Shown here one piece after another: positions 1 to 7,991 of a stretch of 7,991 bases of DNA (its first letter is position 1; every line of letters begins with the position of its first letter). Under the pieces are notes generated by a model, which searched no databases, was not told the DNA's origin, and worked only from the letters and a program-made list of their open reading frames with translations. The stretch covers positions 1-7,991 of the IMG/VR virus record IMGVR_UViG_2695420739_000008; one strand, given 5' to 3'. The translations under genes and the position numbers were made by a program. This DNA is from a virus. Lineage: Duplodnaviria > Heunggongvirae > Uroviricota > Caudoviricetes.

Positions 1-15
1 TAAGTGAATAAAAGT

Positions 16-58
16 AAAAACCCCGTTTGTTGGCACCAAGCGGGGTTTTGTGTTTCTG
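16..58 (+). terminator. Putative rho-independent terminator (tR'-like position upstream of the lysis-type genes)
   Basis: Seen in sequence: stem CCCCG (21-25) / CGGGG (41-45), extendable by the A-run 16-20 against the T-run 46-49, followed by TTTTGTGTTTCTG. The loop is long (15 nt), so this is not a textbook terminator. Confidence 0.4.
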
Positions 59-82
59 ACCTTGAGTAAGGCAAGGGAGAAC

Positions 83-265
83 ATGGCGAAGTATAAACGA
101 ATTCTGTTGAGGTTGACCATGAAAAACGGCCTTGAACTGAAAGCGCCTGTAACTGATGACATCAGCAGAGCACTGGCTTTTGCCATTAAGTGGGTGGCGG
201 TCGGTGTTGCTGTGTCCCCGATGCTGTATGGGCTGGCAAAACTGGTCATTGCGTTGAAATCGTGA
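83..265 (+). CDS. Hypothetical small protein (60 aa) with a basic N-terminus and a C-terminal hydrophobic segment
   Basis: ATG at 83 preceded by AAGGGAGA (short spacer); the tool ORF 50..265 is the same frame from an upstream GTG. The product [11 protein letters not shown]...[29 protein letters not shown] has one long hydrophobic stretch. It sits where a holin would be, but I do not recognise it as lambda S or S21. Confidence 0.45.
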
Positions 266-279
266 AGGGAGGATTAAGC

Positions 280-411
280 ATGTCAGACAAACTCATAACG
301 CTGGCGAAGATCCTCTGTGTAATTGTCGGCATTTCATTTTCACTAATGCTGGTTGCTCTTTTTCTTTCCATGGCCTGGATGATGTTGTCTTCGTCGGGGT
401 TGCTGGGGTGA
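280..411 (+). CDS. Hypothetical single-pass membrane peptide (43 aa)
   Basis: Strong SD AAGGGAGGA (266-274) 5 nt before ATG 280. Product [43 protein letters not shown] has a charged N-terminus and a roughly 26-residue hydrophobic core. Its stop TGA (409-411) overlaps an in-frame GTG (408) of the downstream Rz frame (GTGA). It occupies the endolysin position but is not an endolysin. Confidence 0.5.
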
Positions 412-422
412 ACATAAACCGA

Positions 423-881
423 ATGCTTTCCGCGTTTATCGTTATTCTGCTGGTGGCCTGTGGTGCGCTGTGGATGGCAACAGACCATTACCGTGATAAC
501 GCGATTACCTACAAAGCGCAGCGCGATAACAAAGCCAGTGAACTGAAGCTGGCGAACGCAACCATTACTGATATGCAGGTGCGCCAGCGCGATGTTGCTG
601 CGCTCGATGCAAAATACTCGAGGGAATTAGCCGATGCGAGAGCTGAAAATGAAACTCTTCGCGCTGACGTTGCCGCTGGTCGTAAGCGCCTGCGGATCAA
701 CGCCACCTGTCCAGGCTCCGTGCGTGAAGCCCCCACCACCTCCGGCGTGGATAATGCAACCGGCCCCCGACTGGCAGACACCGCTGAACGGGATTATTTC
801 ACCCTCAGAGAGCGGCTGATGACGATGCACAAGCAACTGGAAGGGGCACAGGAATATATCCGTACTCAGTGCCTGAAATAA
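423..881 (+). CDS. Rz: Rz-type i-spanin (inner-membrane spanin subunit), copy A
   Basis: Translation ...[44 protein letters not shown]...[37 protein letters not shown] closely matches lambda Rz as I recall it: N-terminal TM segment, coiled-coil region, conserved C-terminal Cys. The start may instead be the GTG at 408. Confidence 0.9.
634..819 (+). CDS. Rz1: Rz1-type o-spanin lipoprotein embedded in the +1 frame of Rz, copy A
   Basis: Embedded out-of-frame ORF with signal peptide and lipobox (LVVSAC), proline-rich mature part [30 protein letters not shown], nearly identical to lambda Rz1 as recalled. Confidence 0.85.
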
Positions 882-889
882 GTTTTGTT

Positions 890-1080
890 GATGCGCCGTA
901 TCGTCGCTGTATTCCCTCATTAACAGAGACCGCAGCCCGACAGGGAGACTCCTCTGCGCGAGTGTGCGGGGATAATCAAAAACGATACACACCGGGGTTT
1001 ACCGTGTTAACGGAGCGCGGCGTTGTCCCCTCATAGTCGCCTGTCCGGTGCGATGGTGGAAGAAGCCGGATGTTTATCAC
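890..1080. repeat. Conserved noncoding block downstream of the spanin genes, copy A (paralog of 7061-7250)
   Basis: About 80% identical to 7061-7250 by eye, with small indels (for example CGGGG-TTT versus CGGGTTTTT). No ORF is conserved between the two copies, so it is probably non-coding. Confidence 0.6.
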
Positions 1081-1231
1081 TATTAATTGATGACACAGAA
1101 ATGGATTCATTGAATTTCAGCACGTTTTTGTATTCGTGTTATTGAACATCTGTTTATTTTACTTTTAACATATTGATAATAAAAAGAGCTGTAAATCTTT
1201 AGATGAGTCGATTTTGTCCGGGGAAGTTCAA

Positions 1232-1372
1232 ATGGATTTTATGCTGACGGTTTCTGGTGTGGTTATCCTGTCCATTGCTTATATTGCAGATAAATATGGC
1301 TGCCATTTGTTATCACGTATTGGCGCTTATTGTTCGTTGATGCTGATTTTCTCGTCGCTTTTTTTTGAGTAA
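1232..1372 (+). CDS. Possible small hydrophobic peptide (46 aa); may be non-coding
   Basis: ATG 1232 preceded by GGGGAAG; product MDFMLTVSGVVILSIAYIADKYGCHLLSRIGAYCSLMLIFSSLFFE. Lies in an AT-rich block with promoter-like TTGAAC and TG-A-TAAT elements upstream (1142-1182). It is below the ORF-track length cut-off and there is no homology evidence. Confidence 0.25.
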   Translation: MDFMLTVSGVVILSIAYIADKYGCHLLSRIGAYCSLMLIFSSLFFE

Positions 1373-1504
1373 GTTATATTAATTATAACAAATAATTTTC
1401 TGTGTTATTTTTTCAGGCTATCCCGTCAGAGGGGAAGCCTGTACTGCCGGGGAGCGAATGGAAAACTGATGTGTCCGGTAACTGCGTGTTCTGTGAACAC
1501 CATG

Positions 1505-1690
1505 TTACTTAATTATGTAATTCATACCCGAATTCTCTGTTGACAGCCTTCTTCTGCAGGCTTCAATAACCCACGCTGAAAAGTTTCCTGAACCTTTCAG
1601 ATCAAGAGCGATGTTAATTTGTTCAATCATCTGGTTTGGAAATCGGATGTTGCGGGTTGTTGTTCTGCGGGTTCTGTTCTTTGATGACAT
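1505..1690 (-). CDS. Small Arc/MetJ-like ribbon-helix-helix DNA-binding protein (61 aa), putative
   Basis: Minus-strand ORF with SD GGGGA 6 nt before the ATG. Product MSSKNRTRRTTTRNIRFPNQMIEQINIALDLKGSGNFSAWVIEACRRRL... has a basic N-terminal tail, a beta-strand-like NIRFP, and two helices, which resembles the Arc motif (FNLRWP...) as I recall it. This is the only gene in the window on the opposite strand. Confidence 0.45.
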   Translation of the reverse strand: MSSKNRTRRTTTRNIRFPNQMIEQINIALDLKGSGNFSAWVIEACRRRLSTENSGMNYIIK

Positions 1691-1752
1691 AATGTTTCCC
1701 CATATTCAGTGTTGCTGATTTGTATTATCTGAAGTTGCTTTTACGTTAATTT

Positions 1753-1783
1753 GACGCAGATCAATTAATACGATACCTGCGTC
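1753..1783. promoter_or_regulatory. Inverted repeat GACGCAG-N17-CTGCGTC upstream of the minus-strand RHH gene (candidate operator)
   Basis: Perfect 7-bp inverted repeat (1753-1759 and 1777-1783) with an AT-rich spacer containing ATTAAT, 60-95 nt upstream of the RHH start codon on the minus strand. Confidence 0.3.
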
Positions 1784-1866
1784 ATAATTGATTATTTCTC
1801 GTGGTTTGATGGCGTACACACATGTTGTGATAAACCTTATATAGATGATAATCATTATCATTTCGT

Positions 1867-2291
1867 GGGTCCTTTCCGGCGATCCGACCGGTTACGGGGC
1901 GGCGACCTCGCGGGTTTTCGCTATTTATGAAAATTTTCCGGGAACCATGTCCGGTTTCTCTTCAAGTTAACTATATGAAAAATATAAAAACAGGTCTTCT
2001 GTGAACCGGACATGCACAAAAAATAGACATGTAAGCCGGACATGACCGGTTTTGTTGTGATTGTGAGGTGAGAGTTTTTGCGAGGTGAGGAGTGGCTACG
2101 CAGACTGAAGTTGCCAGGCATTTAAGTCTGACCGATCGCCAGCTTCGCAGATTGCAGAAATTGCCGGGTGCCCCGATATCAAATAAGCGAGGGCAACTGG
2201 ATCTGGATGCCTGGCGCGATTTTTACATATCGTATCTGAGGAGAAGTAAAAACGATGTGCCTGATGGCGATAGCGAAGACGACTATGAGGA
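1867..2291 (+). repeat. 425-bp direct repeat, copy A (cos site plus 5' 200 nt of the terminase small-subunit gene)
   Basis: Matches 7329-7753 at a constant offset of 5,462 bp with 5 mismatches (1881, 1889, 2016, 2025, 2035) by direct reading. Sequences diverge immediately outside both boundaries. Confidence 0.9.
1875..2053 (+). other. Lambda-type cos site, copy A: cosQ, cosN (1897-1908) and cosB with R3 (1946-1956, inverted), AT-rich IHF-like I1, R2 (2004-2014), R1 (2034-2044)
   Basis: GTTACG|GGGCGGCGACCT|CGCGGGTTTTCGCTATTTATGAAAATTTTCCGG matches the joined right and left ends of lambda DNA as I recall them. Three copies of a CCGGACATG-type element, one inverted, flank an A/T-rich segment, as in lambda cosB. 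Confidence 0.8.
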
Positions 2292-2352
2292 ACGCATGGC
2301 GCGGCCTTTTTTTTATGACCTGCCACTGGCAGATGGTCATCCTGTGATTTGA
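2092..2352 (+). CDS. Truncated terminase small subunit (Nu1-like residues 1-67, the winged-HTH DNA-binding region) fused to a 19-aa unrelated tail; possibly a gene remnant
   Basis: GTG start with SD GAGGTGAGGAG. The first 67 codons are identical to the gene at 7554. After position 2291 the sequence diverges and the frame ends after RMARPFFYDLPLADGHPVI. Confidence 0.65.
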   Translation: MATQTEVARHLSLTDRQLRRLQKLPGAPISNKRGQLDLDAWRDFYISYLRRSKNDVPDGDSEDDYEERMARPFFYDLPLADGHPVI

Positions 2353-2400
2353 TTCCGGTTCCGGCTTTTTAACTCTGTTCCTGTACACGGGAGAAATTCG

Positions 2401-4338
2401 ATGTCGATTAAACATTATGATGTTGTCAGGGCGGCGTCGCCGTCAGATCTTGCGGAAAAGCTGACACACAAACTGAAAGAGGGCTGGCAGCCGTTTGGTA
2501 GTCCTGTGGCCATAACCCCTTATACCCTGATGCAGGCGATTGCCGCGGAGGGGGATGTGACCACGCCAGTGGTTGTGCCCGGCACGGGGGATGGTGGCTA
2601 TCCGGGAGTGGTCACCACGGAGCCAGATTATTACTACGTTATTCCACTGGCCGGGCAGTCGAACGGCATGGCTTACGGTGAGGGGCTTCCTCTGCCGCAG
2701 ACATATGACCGTCCTGACCCGCGTATAAAGCAACTGGCTCGTCGCAGCACAGTGACGCCGGATGGCGCTCCCTGTAAATATAACGACATTATTCCGGCAG
2801 ACCACTGTCTGCATGATGTACAGGACATGAGCCGTCTTAACCATCCGAAAGCTGACCTGTCGAAAGGTCAGTACGGAACCGTGGGGCAGGGGCTGCATAT
2901 TGCCAAAAAGCTGCTGCCGTTTATACCGGCGAATGCGGGTATTCTTCTGGTTCCGTGCTGCCGTGGTGGTTCAGCTTTCACCACCGGGGCAGATGGAACA
3001 TACAGTGACGTGACCGGTGCCTCAGAGAGTTCTACCCGCTGGGGTGTGGGCAGGCCGCTGTATAAGGATCTCATCGGTCGTACAAAAGCCGCGCTGGCAA
3101 AGAACCCGAAAAATGTGCTGCTTGCCGTGGTGTGGATGCAGGGGGAATTTGACTTTGACGGAACGCCAGCAAATCACACAGCCCGTTTTACAGAAGTAGT
3201 GGAACAATATCGTACGGACCTTGCAGATATGGTGGGACAGTGCGCTGGTGGTTCTGCTGACGGTGTTCCCTGGATATGTGGAGACACAACTTATTTCTGG
3301 AAGCAGAAGAGCGAATCCACTTACCAGACGGTGTACGGCAGTTACAAAAACAAAACGGAAAAGAATATTCACTTTGTGCCGTTCATGACCGATGAGAACG
3401 GAGCAAATGTCCCGACGAACAAACCGGAAGAAGACCCGGATATTCCGGCATCAGGATATTACGGTGCGGCCTCCCGGACGTCGGCAAACTGGACGTCAGC
3501 AGACCGTGCGAGCCATTTCAGCTCATGGGCACGCAGGGGGATTATTTCTGACCGTCTTGCCTCAGCGATTCTTCTCCATGCAGGACGGACGGCTGAACTG
3601 GTGGGTGGGGAACAGGTTGTGATGCCGCCGGATGAGAAGCCGTCACCGGACACACCATCAACACCGTCAACGGACGGGAAATCAGTGACAACGCTGCTTT
3701 ATTACCGTGCAACAGAGTCAGGTGGTTTACTGAATCCGCAGGGATGGGGAGCTGAAGGAGGGCGTGCATTGGTAGTTGATGATGCAGGTGCTGCAGGAGG
3801 TAAGGCGCTGAGGTGGACCAAACAGACAGGAAGTTCCTCGTGGTTTATGCAGCATGATGTCGGTAATGGCGCAGACCTGCTGGAGAAGGGCGGGCTTATC
3901 AGTTGTCGTTTTAAAGTTGATGGCACACTGACAGCTAATCAGTACGCACTGGCGCTGTACTGGCCGGTTTCTTCACTGCCTCAGGGCGTCACACTGGAAG
4001 GTAATGCCGGTCATAACCTGCTGGCGTCGTTTTACGTACAGAGCGATGCCACAGACCTTAATGTGATGTACCACAAGGGAAATGCTGGTCAGAACACGAA
4101 GCTGGGGTCATTCGGCGCATTTGATAACGAATGGCATACGCTGGGCTTCCGTTTTGCCGGTAACAACAGTATTGAGGTGACGCCGGTCATTGATGGTAAG
4201 GACGGGACGCCGTTCATGCTGTCACAGTCACCGGTCGGCACGTTTACGGCAGACAAATTGCGCGTGACCGATATCACTAGCGGTGCGACATATCCGGTGC
4301 TGATTGAAAGTATAACAGTGGAAGTGAATAACCCGTAA
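2401..4338 (+). CDS. nanS-p: Prophage-encoded sialate O-acetylesterase of the NanS-p type (645 aa): N-terminal DUF1737-like region, SGNH/SASA esterase domain, C-terminal carbohydrate-binding-like region
   Basis: SD GGGAGA 6 nt upstream of the ATG. N-terminus MSIKHYDVVRAASPSDLAEKL...GWQPFGSP and the GQSN motif (Ser87, nt 2659-2661) are typical of SGNH-type sialate O-acetylesterases. The 645-aa size and the position immediately upstream of the S-R-Rz lysis genes match the nanS-p genes of EHEC Stx prophages as I recall them. Confidence 0.85.
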   Translation: MSIKHYDVVRAASPSDLAEKLTHKLKEGWQPFGSPVAITPYTLMQAIAAEGDVTTPVVVPGTGDGGYPGVVTTEPDYYYVIPLAGQSNGMAYGEGLPLPQTYDRPDPRIKQLARRSTVTPDGAPCKYNDIIPADHCLHDVQDMSRLNHPKADLSKGQYGTVGQGLHIAKKLLPFIPANAGILLVPCCRGGSAFTTGADGTYSDVTGASESSTRWGVGRPLYKDLIGRTKAALAKNPKNVLLAVVWMQGEFDFDGTPANHTARFTEVVEQYRTDLADMVGQCAGGSADGVPWICGDTTYFWKQKSESTYQTVYGSYKNKTEKNIHFVPFMTDENGANVPTNKPEEDPDIPASGYYGAASRTSANWTSADRASHFSSWARRGIISDRLASAILLHAGRTAELVGGEQVVMPPDEKPSPDTPSTPSTDGKSVTTLLYYRATESGGLLNPQGWGAEGGRALVVDDAGAAGGKALRWTKQTGSSSWFMQHDVGNGADLLEKGGLISCRFKVDGTLTANQYALALYWPVSSLPQGVTLEGNAGHNLLASFYVQSDATDLNVMYHKGNAGQNTKLGSFGAFDNEWHTLGFRFAGNNSIEVTPVIDGKDGTPFMLSQSPVGTFTADKLRVTDITSGATYPVLIESITVEVNNP

Positions 4339-4485
4339 GCAGGAAAAAAAGGCCGCCGGGGCAGGGAAAACAAGGAGCCAGAACCGGCGGCAAATGTCGT
4401 TATATCCAAAGCAAAACATGCAGGACACTTTTTTAACCAACAGGTATTAACGATGTCAACACCATATCAATAACCGGGAGGGATA

Positions 4486-4668
4486 ATGAGATTTGTACAG
4501 CTTATTTTATTGTATTTCTGCACGGTGGTGTGCACGTTATATCTGGTAAGTGGCGGGTATAAGGTTATCCGGAACTATATACGCAAAAAGATTGATGCCG
4601 CGGCGGCGGAAAAAATCAGCGCCAGCCAGTCAGCCGGAACAAAACCCGAAGAGCCTCTCATTTCGTAG
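4486..4668 (+). CDS. Hypothetical small membrane protein (60 aa)
   Basis: SD GGGAGGG 4 nt before ATG 4486. N-terminal hydrophobic segment LILLYFCTVVCTLYLV followed by a basic, hydrophilic tail. Confidence 0.5.
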   Translation: MRFVQLILLYFCTVVCTLYLVSGGYKVIRNYIRKKIDAAAAEKISASQSAGTKPEEPLIS

Positions 4669-4705
4669 CAACTTTCTTAACAACACCTTTCAACGAGAAA
4701 ATCCT

Positions 4706-4975
4706 ATGTCAGAAATAAAATCTCTGGTCACTGCTGAAGCAGTGAAGGACGTCCTGCGCTCTGAAGAAGTCAGAAGCGCACTGAAACAGCAACTCCGCCA
4801 GAATCTTGAGGCGCGTCTTGATGCTGAAGTGGATGCCATTCTGGATGAGCTGCTGGGGGGACCGGCTGCTCCTGAGCCTGAAGACGGCGCGGGTGACAGT
4901 GCTGTTTCAGATGGCGTTGTGTCTCAGCCTGACGGTAGCAGTGAGCCTCAGCCTGGCGGCGAAATGATGATGTAA
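4706..4975 (+). CDS. Hypothetical acidic protein (89 aa)
   Basis: ATG 4706 (MSEIKSLVTAEAVKDVL...) with a weak SD. Helical, charged N-terminal half and an acidic Pro/Gly/Ser-rich C-terminus. The tool ORF 4550..4975 is the same frame with an N-terminal extension that overlaps the preceding ORF. Confidence 0.5.
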   Translation: MSEIKSLVTAEAVKDVLRSEEVRSALKQQLRQNLEARLDAEVDAILDELLGGPAAPEPEDGAGDSAVSDGVVSQPDGSSEPQPGGEMMM

Positions 4976-5050
4976 CCATACGCAGGGGCTGTCGGTGTGA
5001 GCTGATGCCCCTCCTGTTGTTGTGAGCTTCCGGATTGCGGGAGACGGGGT

Positions 5051-5266
5051 ATGTACCAGATGGAAAAAATAACAACGGGTGTGTCATACACCACGTCAGC
5101 GGTGGGGACGGGATACTGGCTACTGCAGTTGCTGGACAAAGTCTCCCCATCCCAGTGGGTGGCAATAGGCGTATTGGGTAGCCTGGTGTTTGGCTTGCTG
5201 ACGTATCTGACAAACCTTTATTTCAAGATTAAAGAAGATAAGCGTAAGGCTGCGAGAGGTGAATAA
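5051..5266 (+). CDS. S: Class II holin (pinholin) of the phage 21 S family, with dual-start motif Met1/Met4
   Basis: 71-aa product [71 protein letters not shown] closely matches S21 as recalled: two TMDs and a basic C-terminus. Its stop overlaps the endolysin start. Confidence 0.9.
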
Positions 5267-5763
5267 TGTCGCCATCATTACGCAAGGCTGTTGCTGCTGC
5301 TATTGGTGGTGGGGCTGTTGCCATAGCGTCTGTGCTCATCACTGGTCCGAGTGGTGACGATGGCCTGGAAGGTGTCAGCTACATACCATACGAAGATATC
5401 GTTGGCGTATGGACTGTATGTCACGGACACACCGGAAAAGACATCATTCCCGGTAAAACGTATACCGAAGCAGAATGCAAAGCCCTCCTGAATAAAGACC
5501 TTGCCATGGTCGCCAGACAAATTAACCCGTACATCAAAGTCGATATACCGGAAACAACGCGCGGCGCTCTTTACTCGTTCGTTTACAACGTGGGCGCTGG
5601 TAATTTCAGAACATCGACGCTTCTTCGCAAAATAAACCAGGGTGATATCAAAGGCGCATGTGACCAGCTACGTCGCTGGACATACGCTGGCGGTAAGCAA
5701 TGGAAAGGGCTGATGACCCGTCGTGATATTGAGCGTGAAGTCTGTTTGTGGGGGCAGCAATGA
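5266..5763 (+). CDS. R: SAR endolysin (phage 21 R-type lysozyme with N-terminal signal-anchor-release domain)
   Basis: N-terminal Gly/Ala-rich weakly hydrophobic segment [19 protein letters not shown]4-lysozyme-like catalytic residues at E35, D44 and T50 ([17 protein letters not shown]). Overall match to R21 as recalled. ATGA overlap with the downstream Rz. Confidence 0.92.
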
Positions 5764-6227
5764 GCAGGGTAACCGCGATTATCTCCGCTCTGGTTATTTG
5801 CATCATCGTCTGCCTGTCATGGGCTGTTAATCATTACCGTGATAACGCCATCGCCTACAAAGAGCAGCGCGACAAAAACGCCAGAGAGCTGAAGCAGGCG
5901 ACCGCCACCATTACTGACATGCAGAAGCGCCAGCGTGCTGCTGATGCACTCGATGCTAAATACACGAAGGAGTTAGCCAATGCGAAAGCTGAAAATGATG
6001 CTCTTCGGCGTAAGCTTGATAATGGTGGTCGGGTGCTCGTCAAAGGAAAATGCTCTGTGCCATCCTCAGCCGAAACCTCCAGCGCCTCCGGCATGGGCAA
6101 TGATGCCACCGTCGAACTCTCTTCAGTTGCTGGACGAAACGTTCTCGGTATCCGGGACGGAATTATCCGTGACCAAACAGCACTGAGAACGCTTCAGGAG
6201 TACATCAGGACGCAATGCCTGAAATAA
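5760..6227 (+). CDS. Rz: Rz-type i-spanin, copy B
   Basis: [45 protein letters not shown]...[12 protein letters not shown]: the N-terminus is nearly identical to lambda Rz as recalled, with the conserved C-terminal Cys. The tool ORF from 5748 is a GTG extension. Confidence 0.9.
5980..6186 (+). CDS. Rz1: Rz1-type o-spanin lipoprotein embedded in the +1 frame of Rz, copy B
   Basis: [21 protein letters not shown]...[14 protein letters not shown]: signal peptide, lipobox (VVGC), proline-rich mature region. Same frame relationship to Rz as in copy A. Confidence 0.85.
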
Positions 6228-6259
6228 TTTTTTTGCAAATCACAAAGTCAATTTAATGA

Positions 6260-6282
6260 GCCTCGCGATGCGGGGCTTTTTT
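6260..6282 (+). terminator. Putative rho-independent terminator downstream of Rz/Rz1 copy B
   Basis: Stem GCCTCGC (6260-6266) / GCGGGGC (6270-6276), 7 bp with one G-U pair and a 3-nt loop, followed by TTTTTT (6277-6282). Confidence 0.5.
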
Positions 6283-6425
6283 ATGTCCGCAGTAAACGCG
6301 CATCTCACGCGCATATTAACGAGAGCCTTTCAGTAAGCGAGCCTGAGAAATGCCGTTATAGGTGGCGACCTCTCTCGGGCGGCTTTTCTGTGAGACAGGC
6401 TCACTTTCTAAAAGGTAAAGACGCT

Positions 6426-6950
6426 ATGAATAATCATTCAGTTATTCCAGCCTTCGACTTCCGAGAAATGGTGCAAGCCAAAAACGGAGAGGTCGTTACC
6501 ACATCCAGAAAAATTGCCAAGTACTTCGGCAAGCGACACGGTGATGTTCTCAGGAAAATCGAGCAGGTTAAGGTTGATTGCTCGCGTGAGTTTAGCCAAC
6601 GCAATTTTGCGTCGGCTGATTATATCGATGAGCAGGGCAAGGTTCGCCCGATGTACAGCCTGACGAAAGATGGCTGGATCATGGTTGTGATGGGGTTCAC
6701 CGGGAAAGCTGCTGCGGCAATCAAGGAGAGCTATATCGCAGCATTCAACTGGATGGCAGAGCAACTGAGCCGCCGCATGGCAATTGGCGAAGAAATGCAG
6801 CACCGCTACGCCATCAAAGAAACACGCTCAAAGCTGAAAGGTACGATCGGCAGTCGGTTAATGAACGAACGGAAGAGAGAGAAGCGTGTCCTGGCTGTCG
6901 AGCATGAATACATTTTGCAGGTGACACAGCCTGAACTGCTGATTAATTGA
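6426..6950 (+). CDS. rha: Rha-family phage regulatory protein (antirepressor-like N-terminal domain)
   Basis: N-terminal region ...FDFREMVQAKNGEVVTTSRKIAKYFGKRHGDVLRKIEQ...MYSLTKDGWIMVVMGFTGKAAAAIKESYIAAFNWM matches the Rha/pRha domain pattern as recalled. Start ATG 6426 has a weak SD; an upstream GTG at 6390 is possible. Confidence 0.75.
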   Translation: MNNHSVIPAFDFREMVQAKNGEVVTTSRKIAKYFGKRHGDVLRKIEQVKVDCSREFSQRNFASADYIDEQGKVRPMYSLTKDGWIMVVMGFTGKAAAAIKESYIAAFNWMAEQLSRRMAIGEEMQHRYAIKETRSKLKGTIGSRLMNERKREKRVLAVEHEYILQVTQPELLIN

Positions 6951-7060
6951 AGATGTCATTACAAAGCCTATCTACGGGTGGGCTTGATAATGGCTTATAC
7001 CCTGCACGGGATAACTTAACTGATATCCCTTTTAACGGATAAAGGTATTCAGGCCTGACA

Positions 7061-7250
7061 CATCATGCGCTGTATCGTCGCCGTATTCCCGCATTAACCA
7101 TGACCGTAGCCCGACGGGGAACTCCTCTGCGCGAGTGTGCGGGAATAATCAAAAACGATGCACACCGGGTTTTTACCGCGCTAATGATTCGCGGGTTTGT
7201 CCCTCATGCTCGCCAGTCTTGTGCGAGGGTGGAAGAAACAGGGCATGTAT
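7061..7250. repeat. Conserved noncoding block downstream of the lysis/Rha genes, copy B (paralog of 890-1080)
   Basis: About 80% identical to 890-1080 with indels. The ORFs the tool places here (7100..7432, 7197..7466) are not conserved in copy A. Confidence 0.6.
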
Positions 7251-7328
7251 TCAGGAGCGTGCGACCGTGGTCGCACGACGCTGGTCTGTCAGACATTGAA
7301 TTCATTGCGAATAAACCAGAACGCTTGC

Positions 7329-7753
7329 GGGTCCTTTCCGGCAATCCGACAGGTTACGGGGCGGCGACCTCGCGGGTTTTCGCTATTTATGAAAATTTTC
7401 CGGGAACCATGTCCGGTTTCTCTTCAAGTTAACTATATGAAAAATATAAAAACAGGTCTTCTGTGAACCGGACATGCGCAAAAAATGGACATGTAAACCG
7501 GACATGACCGGTTTTGTTGTGATTGTGAGGTGAGAGTTTTTGCGAGGTGAGGAGTGGCTACGCAGACTGAAGTTGCCAGGCATTTAAGTCTGACCGATCG
7601 CCAGCTTCGCAGATTGCAGAAATTGCCGGGTGCCCCGATATCAAATAAGCGAGGGCAACTGGATCTGGATGCCTGGCGCGATTTTTACATATCGTATCTG
7701 AGGAGAAGTAAAAACGATGTGCCTGATGGCGATAGCGAAGACGACTATGAGGA
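7329..7753 (+). repeat. 425-bp direct repeat, copy B (cos site plus 5' 200 nt of the terminase small-subunit gene)
   Basis: See copy A (1867-2291). Confidence 0.9.
7337..7515 (+). other. Lambda-type cos site, copy B: cosQ, cosN (7359-7370), cosB R3 (7408-7418), I1, R2 (7466-7476), R1 (7496-7506)
   Basis: Same elements as copy A. Differences from copy A are confined to two positions in the cosQ-proximal region and three in the R2-R1 segment. Confidence 0.8.
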
Positions 7754-7991
7754 GAAATTGCTTATTGCCAGATGGGAACTGACAGCAGAACAGGCTGTTA
7801 CACAGCAGCTAAAAAATGAGGTGTCAAAAGGAAAACTGATTGACACCGGATTCTGTATTTTTGCCCTCAGTAAGCTGGCAATGGCGTTATCCAGTACGCT
7901 TGATTCCATCCCTTTATCCATGCAGCGACAGTTTCCTGATTTAACACCGCGCCATCTTGACCATCTGAAAACCCTTATTGCGAAGGGGGCA
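7554..7991 (+). CDS. Terminase small subunit (Nu1-like), 3' end outside the window
   Basis: GTG start with SD GAGGTGAGGAG. N-terminal HTH-like region; C-terminal part ...IDTGFCIFALSKLAMALSSTLDSIPLSMQRQFPDLTPRHLDHLK resembles lambda gpNu1 (...ETAFCTFVLSRIAGEIASILDGLPLSVQRRFPELENRHVDFLK) as recalled. The ORF is still open at the window end. Confidence 0.85.
   Translation, partial: MATQTEVARHLSLTDRQLRRLQKLPGAPISNKRGQLDLDAWRDFYISYLRRSKNDVPDGDSEDDYEEKLLIARWELTAEQAVTQQLKNEVSKGKLIDTGFCIFALSKLAMALSSTLDSIPLSMQRQFPDLTPRHLDHLKTLIAKGA

Follow-up and report, generated by a model that had tools for sequence, protein, structure and literature searches.

Small accessory genes in the Rz-cos interval of lambda, namely, bor and its neighbors, are morons that are read opposite to late transcription, have an atypical base composition, and are present or absent between related phages. 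The closest described relatives of the gene reported here are ylcI of DLP12 (b4589), ynfO of Qin (b4533), and an ORF of lambda (complement 48109-48303). All three belong to the DUF3950/NF041551 family and are located immediately upstream of the small-terminase gene on the opposite strand. The lambda reference record leaves this ylcI homolog unannotated, and we found no functional study of ylcI, ynfO, or DUF3950 in the literature. Arc and Mnt of P22 are ribbon-helix-helix (RHH) proteins that are also encoded in the accessory region of a lambdoid phage, and each has a ~50-aa core with an N-terminal basic arm and two helices after a strand. The half-sites of the Arc operator are spaced ~11 bp apart. 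Other RHH proteins, such as VapB, TacA/DUF1778, and CopG-like proteins, are antitoxins with a toxin gene downstream in the same operon, and type I toxins such as Hok, Ldr, and TisB are small hydrophobic peptides with one transmembrane helix.

The window analyzed in this work is a stretch of 7,991 nucleotides (positions 1 to 7,991 of the IMG/VR virus record IMGVR_UViG_2695420739_000008, Caudoviricetes). Alignment to the lambda right end, in which lambda 48502 falls at window position 1896, locates on the plus strand (1867-1908) the segments GGGTCCT (1867-1873) and GGGCGGCGACCT (1897-1908), which in lambda are cosQ and the cohesive-end sequence, respectively. Between the conserved post-Rz spacer and cosQ, we found an AT-rich cassette with no assigned strand (1065-1866). 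In 200-nt windows, GC content is 0.33-0.40 across 1001-1900, compared with 0.52-0.60 at 401-1100 and 0.50-0.62 from 2001 onward; the initial annotation had described the same compositional difference but placed the edges at 1081 and 1860, whereas our comparison places them at 1065 and 1866. In a self-BLAST of the window, 891-1064 matches 7065-7237 at 84% and 1867-2291 matches 7329-7753 at 98.8%, and this second cos copy has 91 unrelated nt in place of the 802-nt block. The second copy is thus entirely without the block, and the segment behaves as the optional accessory insert between the spanin genes and cosQ that it was suspected to be. The presence/absence at the same site in related genomes and the base composition unlike that of the flanks are moron characteristics, and the block is ordinary for the Rz-cos accessory slot of lambdoid prophages. 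It shares with bor and its neighbors the genome slot, the strand opposite to late transcription, the atypical composition, and the variable presence between related phages. Unlike bor-type morons, which encode an envelope protein, the block probably encodes a regulator, and no clear promoter/terminator pair was found: we identified no canonical terminator for the block, and promoter-like hexamers (8/12 matches) precede the 46-aa ORF described below but not ylcI.

Homology breakpoints among 80 viral loci fall at ~1070 and at 1536/1548/1556. In window-type and O157-type prophages, homology spans 891-1699. The block had been treated as a single unit; by these alignments it is a mosaic of two parts, neither of which is assigned a strand. 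The conserved lambda-type module (1548-1866) contains the 5' three-quarters of ylcI and the upstream region to cosQ, with 1556-1860 being 87.5% identical to lambda 48169-48466. The variable cargo (1065-1547) contains a unit with the 46-aa ORF and the 3' tail of ylcI. The cargo is the rarer part: 1081-1500 is present in 734 of 5426 E. coli genomes, compared with 4174 of the 5426 for DNA matching the ylcI region, most of which have the 1548-1866 module. The neighboring cargo also differs in the named relatives, in which ybcW/ybcV/bor, ydfO/gnsB, or lambdap79 are found rather than the 46-aa ORF.

The 61-aa ORF on the minus strand (1505-1690) has its ATG at 1690-1688 and GGGGA (1701-1697) 6 nt upstream of the start, in agreement with the good Shine-Dalgarno sequence noted before. 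Profile matches assign it to the YlcI/YnfO (DUF3950) family: it scores 67.5 bits against Pfam DUF3950 (PF13132; cutoff 25, E 9.1e-19) and 35.2 bits against NCBIfam NF041551 (YlcI_YnfO_N; cutoff 30), and it matches phrog_949 (E 9.6e-32). The product of the identical locus in RefSeq is annotated by PGAP as WP_032163299.1. The gene is not new: its family is already annotated in Pfam, NCBIfam, and PGAP, and it is a catalogued YlcI/YnfO member. The product contains the family motif I-R-F ... N-F-S-A-W-V-x-x-A-C and an RHH-like core at residues ~12-50, and R16, F17, I25, N36-V41, A44, and C45 are invariant in an alignment of 20 sequences spanning Enterobacterales. Compared with YlcI, YnfO, and the lambda ORF, the identity is ~79% overall and ~90% or more over residues 1-52. 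Like these genes, the window gene is the last before cos and the small terminase gene and is oriented opposite to the late operon, and its upstream sequence is the same as that of lambda-type copies; in O157, a ylcI-family gene adjoins an HNH-type module. The C-terminal tail, which is encoded by the cargo from about codon 45-52 and reads STENSGMNYIIK in the window, differs from those of the three relatives. Such tails vary because the mosaic joint falls inside ylcI (codons 45-52).

For codons 1-45 of ylcI, comparison between the window and lambda yielded a pS of 0.40 and a pN of 0.028 (dN/dS 0.05), and dN/dS is 0.09-0.22 in other pairs. These values indicate a real gene under strong purifying selection. 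Transcription of ylcI in K-12 is indicated by RNA-seq, in which ybcW and ylcI are listed as convergent transcripts that overlap in ≥50% of the samples (PMC12288877). The promoter scan found no sigma-70-like promoter on the ylcI strand in the window or in K-12.

In an AlphaFold monomer of the 61-aa product (pLDDT 74), residues 13-18 are extended and two helices follow, at 19-32 and 37-55. The model assigns no strand, as would be expected for a monomer because the RHH sheet forms only in the dimer. All six Foldseek matches of this model in PDB are RHH proteins (CdbA, Arc, and NikR), all with weak scores. In hhalign, the IRFP-helix segment is in register with Arc (E 0.003, probability 10%), and alignments were also obtained with the whole N-terminal domain of NikR (E 0.023) and with Mnt (E 0.08), while CopG (E 0.23) and MetJ (E 0.91) do not align; the probabilities for RHH proteins are all ≤10%. 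Every PDB match from two independent methods is an RHH protein with a score below significance. None of 20 YlcI-family members matched a Pfam RHH family even at E ≤10, a profile search of PDB sequences gave only one irrelevant match (E 2.4), and a viral structure library gave no informative match. The model and the fold matches suggest that YlcI probably adopts the RHH fold, although every score is weak. The likeness to Arc/Mnt/CopG noted in the initial annotation is in line with the predicted strand-helix-helix shape and with the weak match to Arc; CopG does not align. YlcI resembles Arc and Mnt in its ~50-aa core, N-terminal basic arm, predicted strand followed by two helices, and location in an accessory region, and the strand-to-helix junction N-[IL]-R-[FWM]-P-x-[EQ] aligns in register. 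It differs from them in having no significant sequence or profile match and no antirepressor gene under its control, and the half-sites of its candidate operator are separated by ~25 bp, compared with ~11 bp for Arc.

Upstream of ylcI, the initial annotation had reported a perfect inverted repeat with 7-nt arms. We found the same repeat with 8-nt arms, TGACGCAG (1752-1759) and CTGCGTCA (1777-1784), which are separated by 17 nt and located 62-94 nt upstream of the ylcI ATG. A second 8-nt repeat, ATCAATTA (1760-1767) and TAATTGAT (1785-1792), is interleaved with the first, and together these form an imperfect palindrome (~1745-1792, no strand) with arms at -101 to -86 and -76 to -61 from the ATG and GTCAA at -65. 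Dinucleotide shuffling of the block produced a perfect 8-nt inverted repeat with a loop of ≤40 nt in 39% of cases and at least two such repeats in 15%, and 34% of shuffled versions of 1065-1547 contain a complete ATG ORF of 46 aa or longer; since both arise so often, neither the repeat nor the 46-aa ORF is significant alone, and their weight comes from comparison with other loci. The 41 nt spanning the palindrome are identical between the window and lambda. Among 86 close loci, 23 have the perfect repeat and 44 a version with one mismatch, whereas the 19 in which ylcI is next to an HNH gene have no such repeat. In 44 of the 67 lambda-type loci, one arm reads CTGCATCA, and the left arm is perfect in the window but has one mismatch in the ylcI/ynfO/lambda copies. 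The repeat is not a constant partner of ylcI, being perfect in a minority of copies and missing where the gene abuts an HNH/terminase module. Its description as a palindromic operator candidate gains from homologs in other mobile elements, which have operator-like boxes at the same positions. Upstream of 16 such homologs, GTG-N6-CAC boxes occur at 2.1 per 140 nt, compared with a background of 0.09, and at fixed positions (-100, -76, and -30) with GTCAA at -62 to -67; the repeat arms and the GTCAA in the window occupy the same positions. The boxes are repeated, palindromic, and located at divergent promoters, and their sequences differ between loci. A P4-type integrase is found downstream in four of the loci with boxes. 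Upstream divergence is 0.098, compared with a synonymous divergence of 0.40 in ylcI. However, this test is not decisive because the sample is essentially two haplotypes and recombinants and the low diversity extends into the ylcI coding sequence for its first 55 nt, such that recombination, rather than selection on an operator, could explain the upstream conservation.

Several other candidates in this upstream region were examined and rejected. The TTGACG at 1751-1756, considered as a plus-strand -35 element by analogy with island-type loci, has no acceptable -10 at 16-18 nt. A plus-strand promoter-like site at 1825-1852 (TTGTGA-16-GATAAT) is not conserved, with a 7-nt spacer deletion in lambda. 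A 51-aa minus-strand ORF (1706-1861; phrog_9395) has a dN/dS of 0.71 and a frame that is broken in lambda by a 7-nt indel. For an H-type RNA pseudoknot formed by the two interleaved repeats, both crossing loops would be 0 nt.

In the cargo, the convergent 46-aa hydrophobic ORF on the plus strand (1232-1372) was found as described in the initial annotation. It is nested in a 52-aa TTG ORF starting at 1214, is preceded by GGGGAAG (1220-1226) 5 nt before the ATG, and is annotated by PGAP as a hypothetical protein (WP_000347009.1). The product has a GRAVY of 1.22 and two hydrophobic segments flanking a polar loop, and its AlphaFold model (pLDDT 72) has two helices (2-22 and 24-44). The peptide is presumably translated and located in the membrane, and the ORF is listed here as a candidate small membrane protein. 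Promoter-like elements had been reported upstream, and we found hexamers with 8/12 matches each at 1142-1180 (TTGAAC-18-TAACAT and TTTATT-16-GATAAT, plus strand), but these are weak and below the scan threshold, and the promoter scan reported none upstream of the ORF on the plus strand. Positions 1153-1185 (33 nt) are unchanged in the SHP24 copy, with which overall identity is only 81%. Hydrophobic ORFs tend to arise in T-rich DNA.

The explanation that we favor, with somewhat more confidence than doubt, is a two-part moron-type cassette at the right end of a lambda-like prophage, in which a ylcI RHH regulator module is joined to exchangeable cargo with an independent 46-aa peptide. YlcI, with a ~50-aa core composed of a basic N-terminal tail, a short strand (RNIRF), helix A, and helix B, would most likely be an RHH dimer, a predicted DNA binder, and a small transcription regulator. 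As ylcI is read opposite to the late operon, it is probably expressed from the resident prophage rather than in lytic growth, as is accepted for bor. The most likely target would be the conserved imperfect palindrome that precedes the ylcI start codon by 62-102 nt, where binding could lead to autoregulation, control of transcription across the ylcI-cos interval, or both. The exchangeable cargo would supply the variable C-terminal tail of YlcI and bring an independent unit encoding the 46-aa two-helix hydrophobic peptide. If YlcI is a DNA-binding regulator, lambda and most lambdoid E. coli prophages carry an unstudied regulator beside the packaging site; with matching DNA in roughly three of every four complete E. 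coli genomes searched, this would represent a modest gap in our knowledge of a very well-studied phage. The mosaic joint inside ylcI explains the many C-terminal variants, and the suspected toxin/antitoxin pairing can be set aside. In its strongest form, namely, that YlcI is a working RHH repressor of lambda and most lambdoid prophages that is expressed in the lysogen and binds the palindrome next to cosQ, the proposal is doubtful. If it is true, phage YlcI could gate transcription across cos or cross-talk with resident islands carrying a P4-type integrase. YlcI relatives in such islands are in the position of a regulator, where a divergent promoter has three operator-like boxes.

Other roles for YlcI and the palindrome have to be weighed against this explanation. 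YlcI may be a small helical protein without DNA-binding activity, such as a protein-binding adaptor, with only an incidental likeness to RHH proteins. The subsignificant fold and profile scores, the monomer model without a strand, and the persistence of ylcI with an unrelated upstream region in HNH-type phages are consistent with this possibility. Nevertheless, we consider it improbable, given that the PDB matches from two independent methods are all RHH proteins, that YlcI is in register with Arc and Mnt at its basic N-terminal tail and its N-I-R-F-P-x-[QE] junction, and that the island-type homologs lie at divergent promoters with repeated, locus-specific palindromic boxes. Alternatively, the palindrome and the surrounding 170 nt may be a cis element of the phage, either a DNA site assisting cos or a hairpin in the late plus-strand transcript. 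The palindrome is located ~75-120 nt upstream of cosQ in a region where conservation is at the nucleotide level (the 51-aa frame at 1706-1861 having the high dN/dS given above), and the hairpin at 1745-1792 is stronger in plus-strand RNA (-15.8 kcal/mol, z -4.6) than on the minus strand (z -3.2). Moreover, a common C-to-T polymorphism in the left arm retains a G-U pair on the plus-strand RNA and produces a C-A mismatch on the minus. However, only one variable position informs the strand, and a C to T in ATCAATTA favors the opposite strand. The second cos copy, 98.8% identical from cosQ onward, and the HNH-type phages are without the palindrome, and there is no Rfam family match. Lambda cos function has been mapped to cosQ-cosN-cosB, which also counts against a cis element, and we regard this alternative as unlikely, if a little less so than a YlcI that does not bind DNA.

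A more serious challenge concerns the cargo, as the 46-aa ORF may be a chance frame in a T-rich spacer that was picked up by annotation pipelines and is not a gene. This reading has a considerable, though lesser, chance of being correct. Consistent with it are the frequency of such ORFs in shuffles, the absence of a Pfam, NCBIfam, PHROG, or PADLOC family for the product, relatives found in E. coli only, several of which in the databases are frame-shifted, the lack of a promoter above the scan threshold, and a dN/dS of 0.88 against the closest variant, a value that derives from eight changes. Against it, the frame and the length are constant over three lineages with up to 19% nucleotide divergence and indels in the flanks, and comparison with the 81%-identical SHP24 copy yielded a dN/dS of 0.27-0.31 in frame versus 0.55-1.7 in other frames. 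Furthermore, the three copies compared all retain GGGGAA before the start, and there is conservation of the polar loop ADKYG..LLSRIGAY. From these patterns, the ORF is probably coding. Whether it forms one functional module with ylcI, either as the toxin of an antitoxin/toxin pair or as a superinfection-exclusion peptide under repressor control, is a separate question raised by the initial annotation. The two ORFs lie next to each other and are inherited together in window-type and O157-type prophages (homology 891-1699), and the peptide is small and hydrophobic, resembling Hok, Ldr, and TisB in size, in hydrophobicity, and in its location in prophage accessory DNA. Yet it has two hydrophobic helices of ~16-20 residues rather than one transmembrane helix, and no antisense RNA family match or homology to a named family was found; an Rfam scan covering the entire window (E ≤1) gave only two chance-level matches, with no toxin or antisense family, and PADLOC matched neither ORF. 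Unlike RHH antitoxin genes, ylcI is monocistronic, with a recombination joint as its 3' end and no same-strand ORF downstream, and the neighboring 46-aa ORF is convergent and not co-transcribed with it. The inverted repeat and the peptide ORF are on opposite sides of ylcI. No 46-aa ORF accompanies ylcI in lambda, DLP12, Qin, and most E. coli genomes, the neighbors of ylcI being wholly different in the three named elements and the genome count for the ylcI region (4174) far exceeding that for the peptide cassette (734). Conversely, two loci (L167 and L168) have the peptide cassette directly adjoining another terminase module without ylcI. By distribution, the two ORFs are independent of each other, and because each occurs without the other, a toxin/antitoxin or other functional pair is not supported; we consider such a module very improbable.

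Between the two convergent ORFs, the intergenic region (1373-1504, no strand) has no canonical intrinsic terminator, and the sole terminator-like match is weak (1486-1500, plus strand). RNA folding indicates that this region is structured on both strands, with z scores of -2.6 for the plus strand and -2.9 for the minus strand.

The window covers the right end of a lambda-like E. coli prophage. Rz1 (634-819) is nested within Rz (408-881; Pfam Phage_lysis, E 6e-50), and the lambda cos region aligns with the window from 1867 onward, with lambda 48502 corresponding to 1896; the cohesive-end sequence GGGCGGCGACCT occupies 1897-1908. Both ORFs proposed in the initial annotation for the interval between Rz and cos are present, namely, a 61-aa ORF on the minus strand (1505-1690) and a 46-aa ORF on the plus strand (1232-1372); a purine-rich ribosome-binding motif precedes each ATG by 5-6 nt. 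Based on sequence matches to Pfam DUF3950 (67.5 bits; cutoff 25), NCBIfam NF041551 (35.2 bits; cutoff 30), and phrog_949, the 61-aa product is clearly assigned to the YlcI/YnfO family. PGAP names the product "YlcI/YnfO family protein" (WP_032163299.1) at a locus of 100% identity in a complete E. coli genome, where the gene is flanked by those for the spanin and the small terminase subunit; the 46-aa ORF of that locus is listed as a hypothetical protein. In K-12, ylcI (DLP12) and ynfO (Qin) have the same position and orientation, beside nohD and nohA. Lambda has a 64-aa homologue (complement 48109-48303), which is unannotated in NC_001416 and annotated in other lambda-like records. The gene is thus a member of an already annotated, named family and a typical occupant of the accessory slot between Rz and cos in lambdoid prophages. 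This family is narrow: a set of 1.8 billion proteins contains 105 cluster representatives, virtually all of which come from mobile elements of Enterobacterales. Our literature search found no functional study of ylcI, ynfO, or DUF3950, and what remains of interest is the presence in lambda itself of an unstudied, conserved small gene beside cos.

Between the window and lambda, codons 1-45 of ylcI have a pS of 0.40 and a pN of 0.028 (dN/dS 0.05), and dN/dS in other pairs is 0.09-0.22. A survey of K-12 RNA-seq data includes ybcW and ylcI among convergent overlapping transcript pairs, seen in at least half of the samples (PMC12288877); this sole, indirect line of evidence on expression implies that ylcI is transcribed in a cryptic prophage. 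Lambda-type copies hardly vary at the nucleotide level over the first 55 nt of ylcI. Two direct-repeat copies of TGCGGGTT lie on the plus strand at 1650-1673, within the codons for the basic YlcI N-terminal tail (RTRRTTTR), and were flagged as terminator-like on that strand by our scan in the window and K-12 alike. Near-identical copies of the lambda right end were also found in short contigs (often ~3.5 kb) labelled Streptomyces, Cohnella, Pseudomonas, Flavobacterium, and other unrelated taxa (loci L007-L033, L036-L039, L041, L043, L062, and L066); these are almost certainly lambda control DNA contamination, not real occurrences.

The block that contains both ORFs is AT-rich as initially observed, with a GC content of 0.33-0.40 over 1001-1900 compared with 0.52-0.60 on its left and 0.50-0.62 on its right. 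A second cos copy in the window lacks it: the spacers at 891-1064 and 7065-7237 are 84% identical, and between the spacer and cos matches this copy has 91 unrelated nt in place of the 802-nt block. This comparison places the block at 1065-1866, with its right edge at the first base of cosQ. The initial view of a moron-like insert is therefore upheld, but not that of one functional unit, since the block is mosaic and its ORFs are separable. Homology breakpoints recur at ~1070, 1536/1548/1556, 1691/1699, and ~1942 among 80 viral-contig loci and other genomes. The segment 1556-1860 is 87.5% identical to lambda 48169-48466, and the right-part DNA is matched in 4174 of 5426 complete E. coli genomes; the left part (1081-1500) is present in 734 of them. 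The internal joint lies within ylcI at codons 45-52, directly after the invariant NFSAWVIEAC, and for this reason the family has a constant core of ~50 aa followed by at least five unrelated C-terminal tails.

The suggestion that the 61-aa product is an Arc-like ribbon-helix-helix protein is probably right. In an AlphaFold model from a 24-sequence alignment (pLDDT 74), residues 13-18 (RNIRFP) are extended and followed by helices 19-32 and 37-55, and all six Foldseek matches of this model in PDB are ribbon-helix-helix proteins (CdbA, Arc, and NikR). By hhalign, Arc aligns in register at the IRFP-helix junction (E 0.003, probability 10%) and NikR does so over the whole domain (E 0.023); alignments to Mnt, CopG, and MetJ were worse or absent. 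No Pfam ribbon-helix-helix model matched YlcI, and we regard the predicted fold as probable rather than established.

The inverted repeat upstream of ylcI, a candidate operator, is perfect as first described, with arms one base longer (TGACGCAG, 1752-1759; CTGCGTCA, 1777-1784). Interleaved with these arms is a second 8-nt repeat (ATCAATTA/TAATTGAT), and the two repeats combined form an imperfect palindrome at 1745-1792. Such an 8-nt inverted repeat occurs in 39% of dinucleotide shuffles, so it is not significant by itself. Across the palindrome, 41 nt are identical between the window and lambda, whereas ylcI synonymous sites differ at 40%; read as protein, the interval is without coding constraint (dN/dS 0.71), and lambda has a frame-breaking indel. 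Of 86 close loci, 23 have a perfect repeat, 44 have a copy with a single mismatch (CTGCATCA), and 19 HNH-type loci lack it. Recombination near cos could also yield this conservation, because the low diversity extends into the first 55 nt of the ylcI coding sequence and the sample consists of essentially two haplotypes plus recombinants. Alternatively, the palindrome may act as a plus-strand RNA hairpin instead of an operator, given a free energy of -15.8 kcal/mol (z -4.6). No sigma-70-like promoter for ylcI was found in the window or K-12.

The best comparative evidence for an operator role comes from the upstream sequences of 16 distant YlcI homologues in other mobile elements. In these, GTG-N6-CAC boxes lie near -100, -76, and -30 relative to the start codon (2.1 per 140 nt vs. 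a background of 0.09) and GTCAA lies at -62 to -67; the arms in the window lie at -101 to -86 and -76 to -61, with GTCAA at -65. Box centres vary among the distant loci, and a P4-type integrase lies downstream in four of those tested. This layout matches the expectation for a small repressor that acts at a divergent promoter. The YlcI family may comprise repressors of integrative islands or phage satellites. Homologues from Pectobacterium, Serratia, Xenorhabdus, Klebsiella, Enterobacter, and Brenneria (L046, L049, L052, L056, L064, L068, L070, L077, L080, L082, L083, and others; ~140 nt upstream of position 2501) lie at a divergent promoter with three 12-bp GTG-N6-CAC boxes, whose centres appear to track the strand residues TKG, YKG, and KKH/KKK. 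A YlcI-family ORF was also found at ~2495-2670 in L044 and L045 (Salmonella enterica subsp. diarizonae and arizonae) between genes for an IpgD/SopB-type effector and Peptidase_C69, which is the SPI-5 sopB-pipD interval.

For the 46-aa ORF, an ATG ORF of at least this length arises in 34% of shuffles of 1065-1547, so its presence is not significant by itself, and T-rich DNA is biased toward hydrophobic ORFs. The promoter-like elements initially placed before it were not recovered, as a promoter scan found none above threshold on the relevant strands. No family match was found in Pfam, NCBIfam, PADLOC, or PHROG, and its relatives are from E. coli only. Three lineages share its frame and length at nucleotide divergence of up to 19%, with indels in the flanks. 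The dN/dS is 0.27-0.31 in frame vs. 0.55-1.7 in other frames, on small counts (24 substitutions in the main comparison), and 0.88 on 8 substitutions in the closest pair. Conservation among the copies extends to the GGGGAA preceding the start codon and to a polar loop in the centre of the peptide. The product has a GRAVY of 1.22 and two hydrophobic segments, modelled as two helices (pLDDT 72; AlphaFold, shallow alignment). On balance, these comparisons lean modestly toward a real gene.

The toxin/antitoxin arrangement proposed for the two ORFs is wrong. The cargo beside ylcI is lambdap79, lambdap78, and bor in lambda; ybcW, ybcV, and borD in DLP12; and ydfO, gnsB, and others in Qin. In two loci (L167 and L168), the 46-aa ORF and its upstream region directly adjoin a different terminase module without ylcI. 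O157:H7 has both ORFs, and its ylcI abuts an HNH endonuclease gene, with start codons just 41 nt apart. Because the ORFs are convergent and each is found without the other, neither a toxin/antitoxin nor a repressor-target module is supported.

The two cos regions are direct repeats (1867-2291 and 7329-7753; 98.8% identical, 5462 bp apart), each containing cosQ, cosN, cosB, and the 5' end of the small terminase gene. The arrangement of the window as a whole was not found in any complete E. coli genome of the collection (best coverage 66%). At 1845-1861, 5 nt before cosQ, lies a perfect palindrome, ATGATAAT-N1-ATTATCAT, which is also kept in lambda with a different outer base pair; we know of no role for it. 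The truncated small terminase subunit (phrog_57) is an 86-aa ORF at 2092-2352; the match to the full-length gene of locus L001 ends at 2291, and 2388-2559 matches L001 just upstream of its SASA esterase gene. These matches suggest a remnant of one prophage joined to the late region of another. The 645-aa protein at 2401-4338 combines DUF1737, SASA (sialate O-acetylesterase-type), and DUF6645 domains and is the NanS-p-like esterase common in Stx-type prophages. The GC-rich spacer of ~175 nt after Rz (891-1064 and 7065-7237) is present in many viral loci and carries no annotated gene. Genomes matching 6390-6950 have a "phage antirepressor N-terminal domain-containing protein" annotated somewhere under the match. 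A 186-aa ORF in this interval replaces the ylcI block in the Rz-cos slot of the second lysis-cos copy, which illustrates cargo exchange at this slot.
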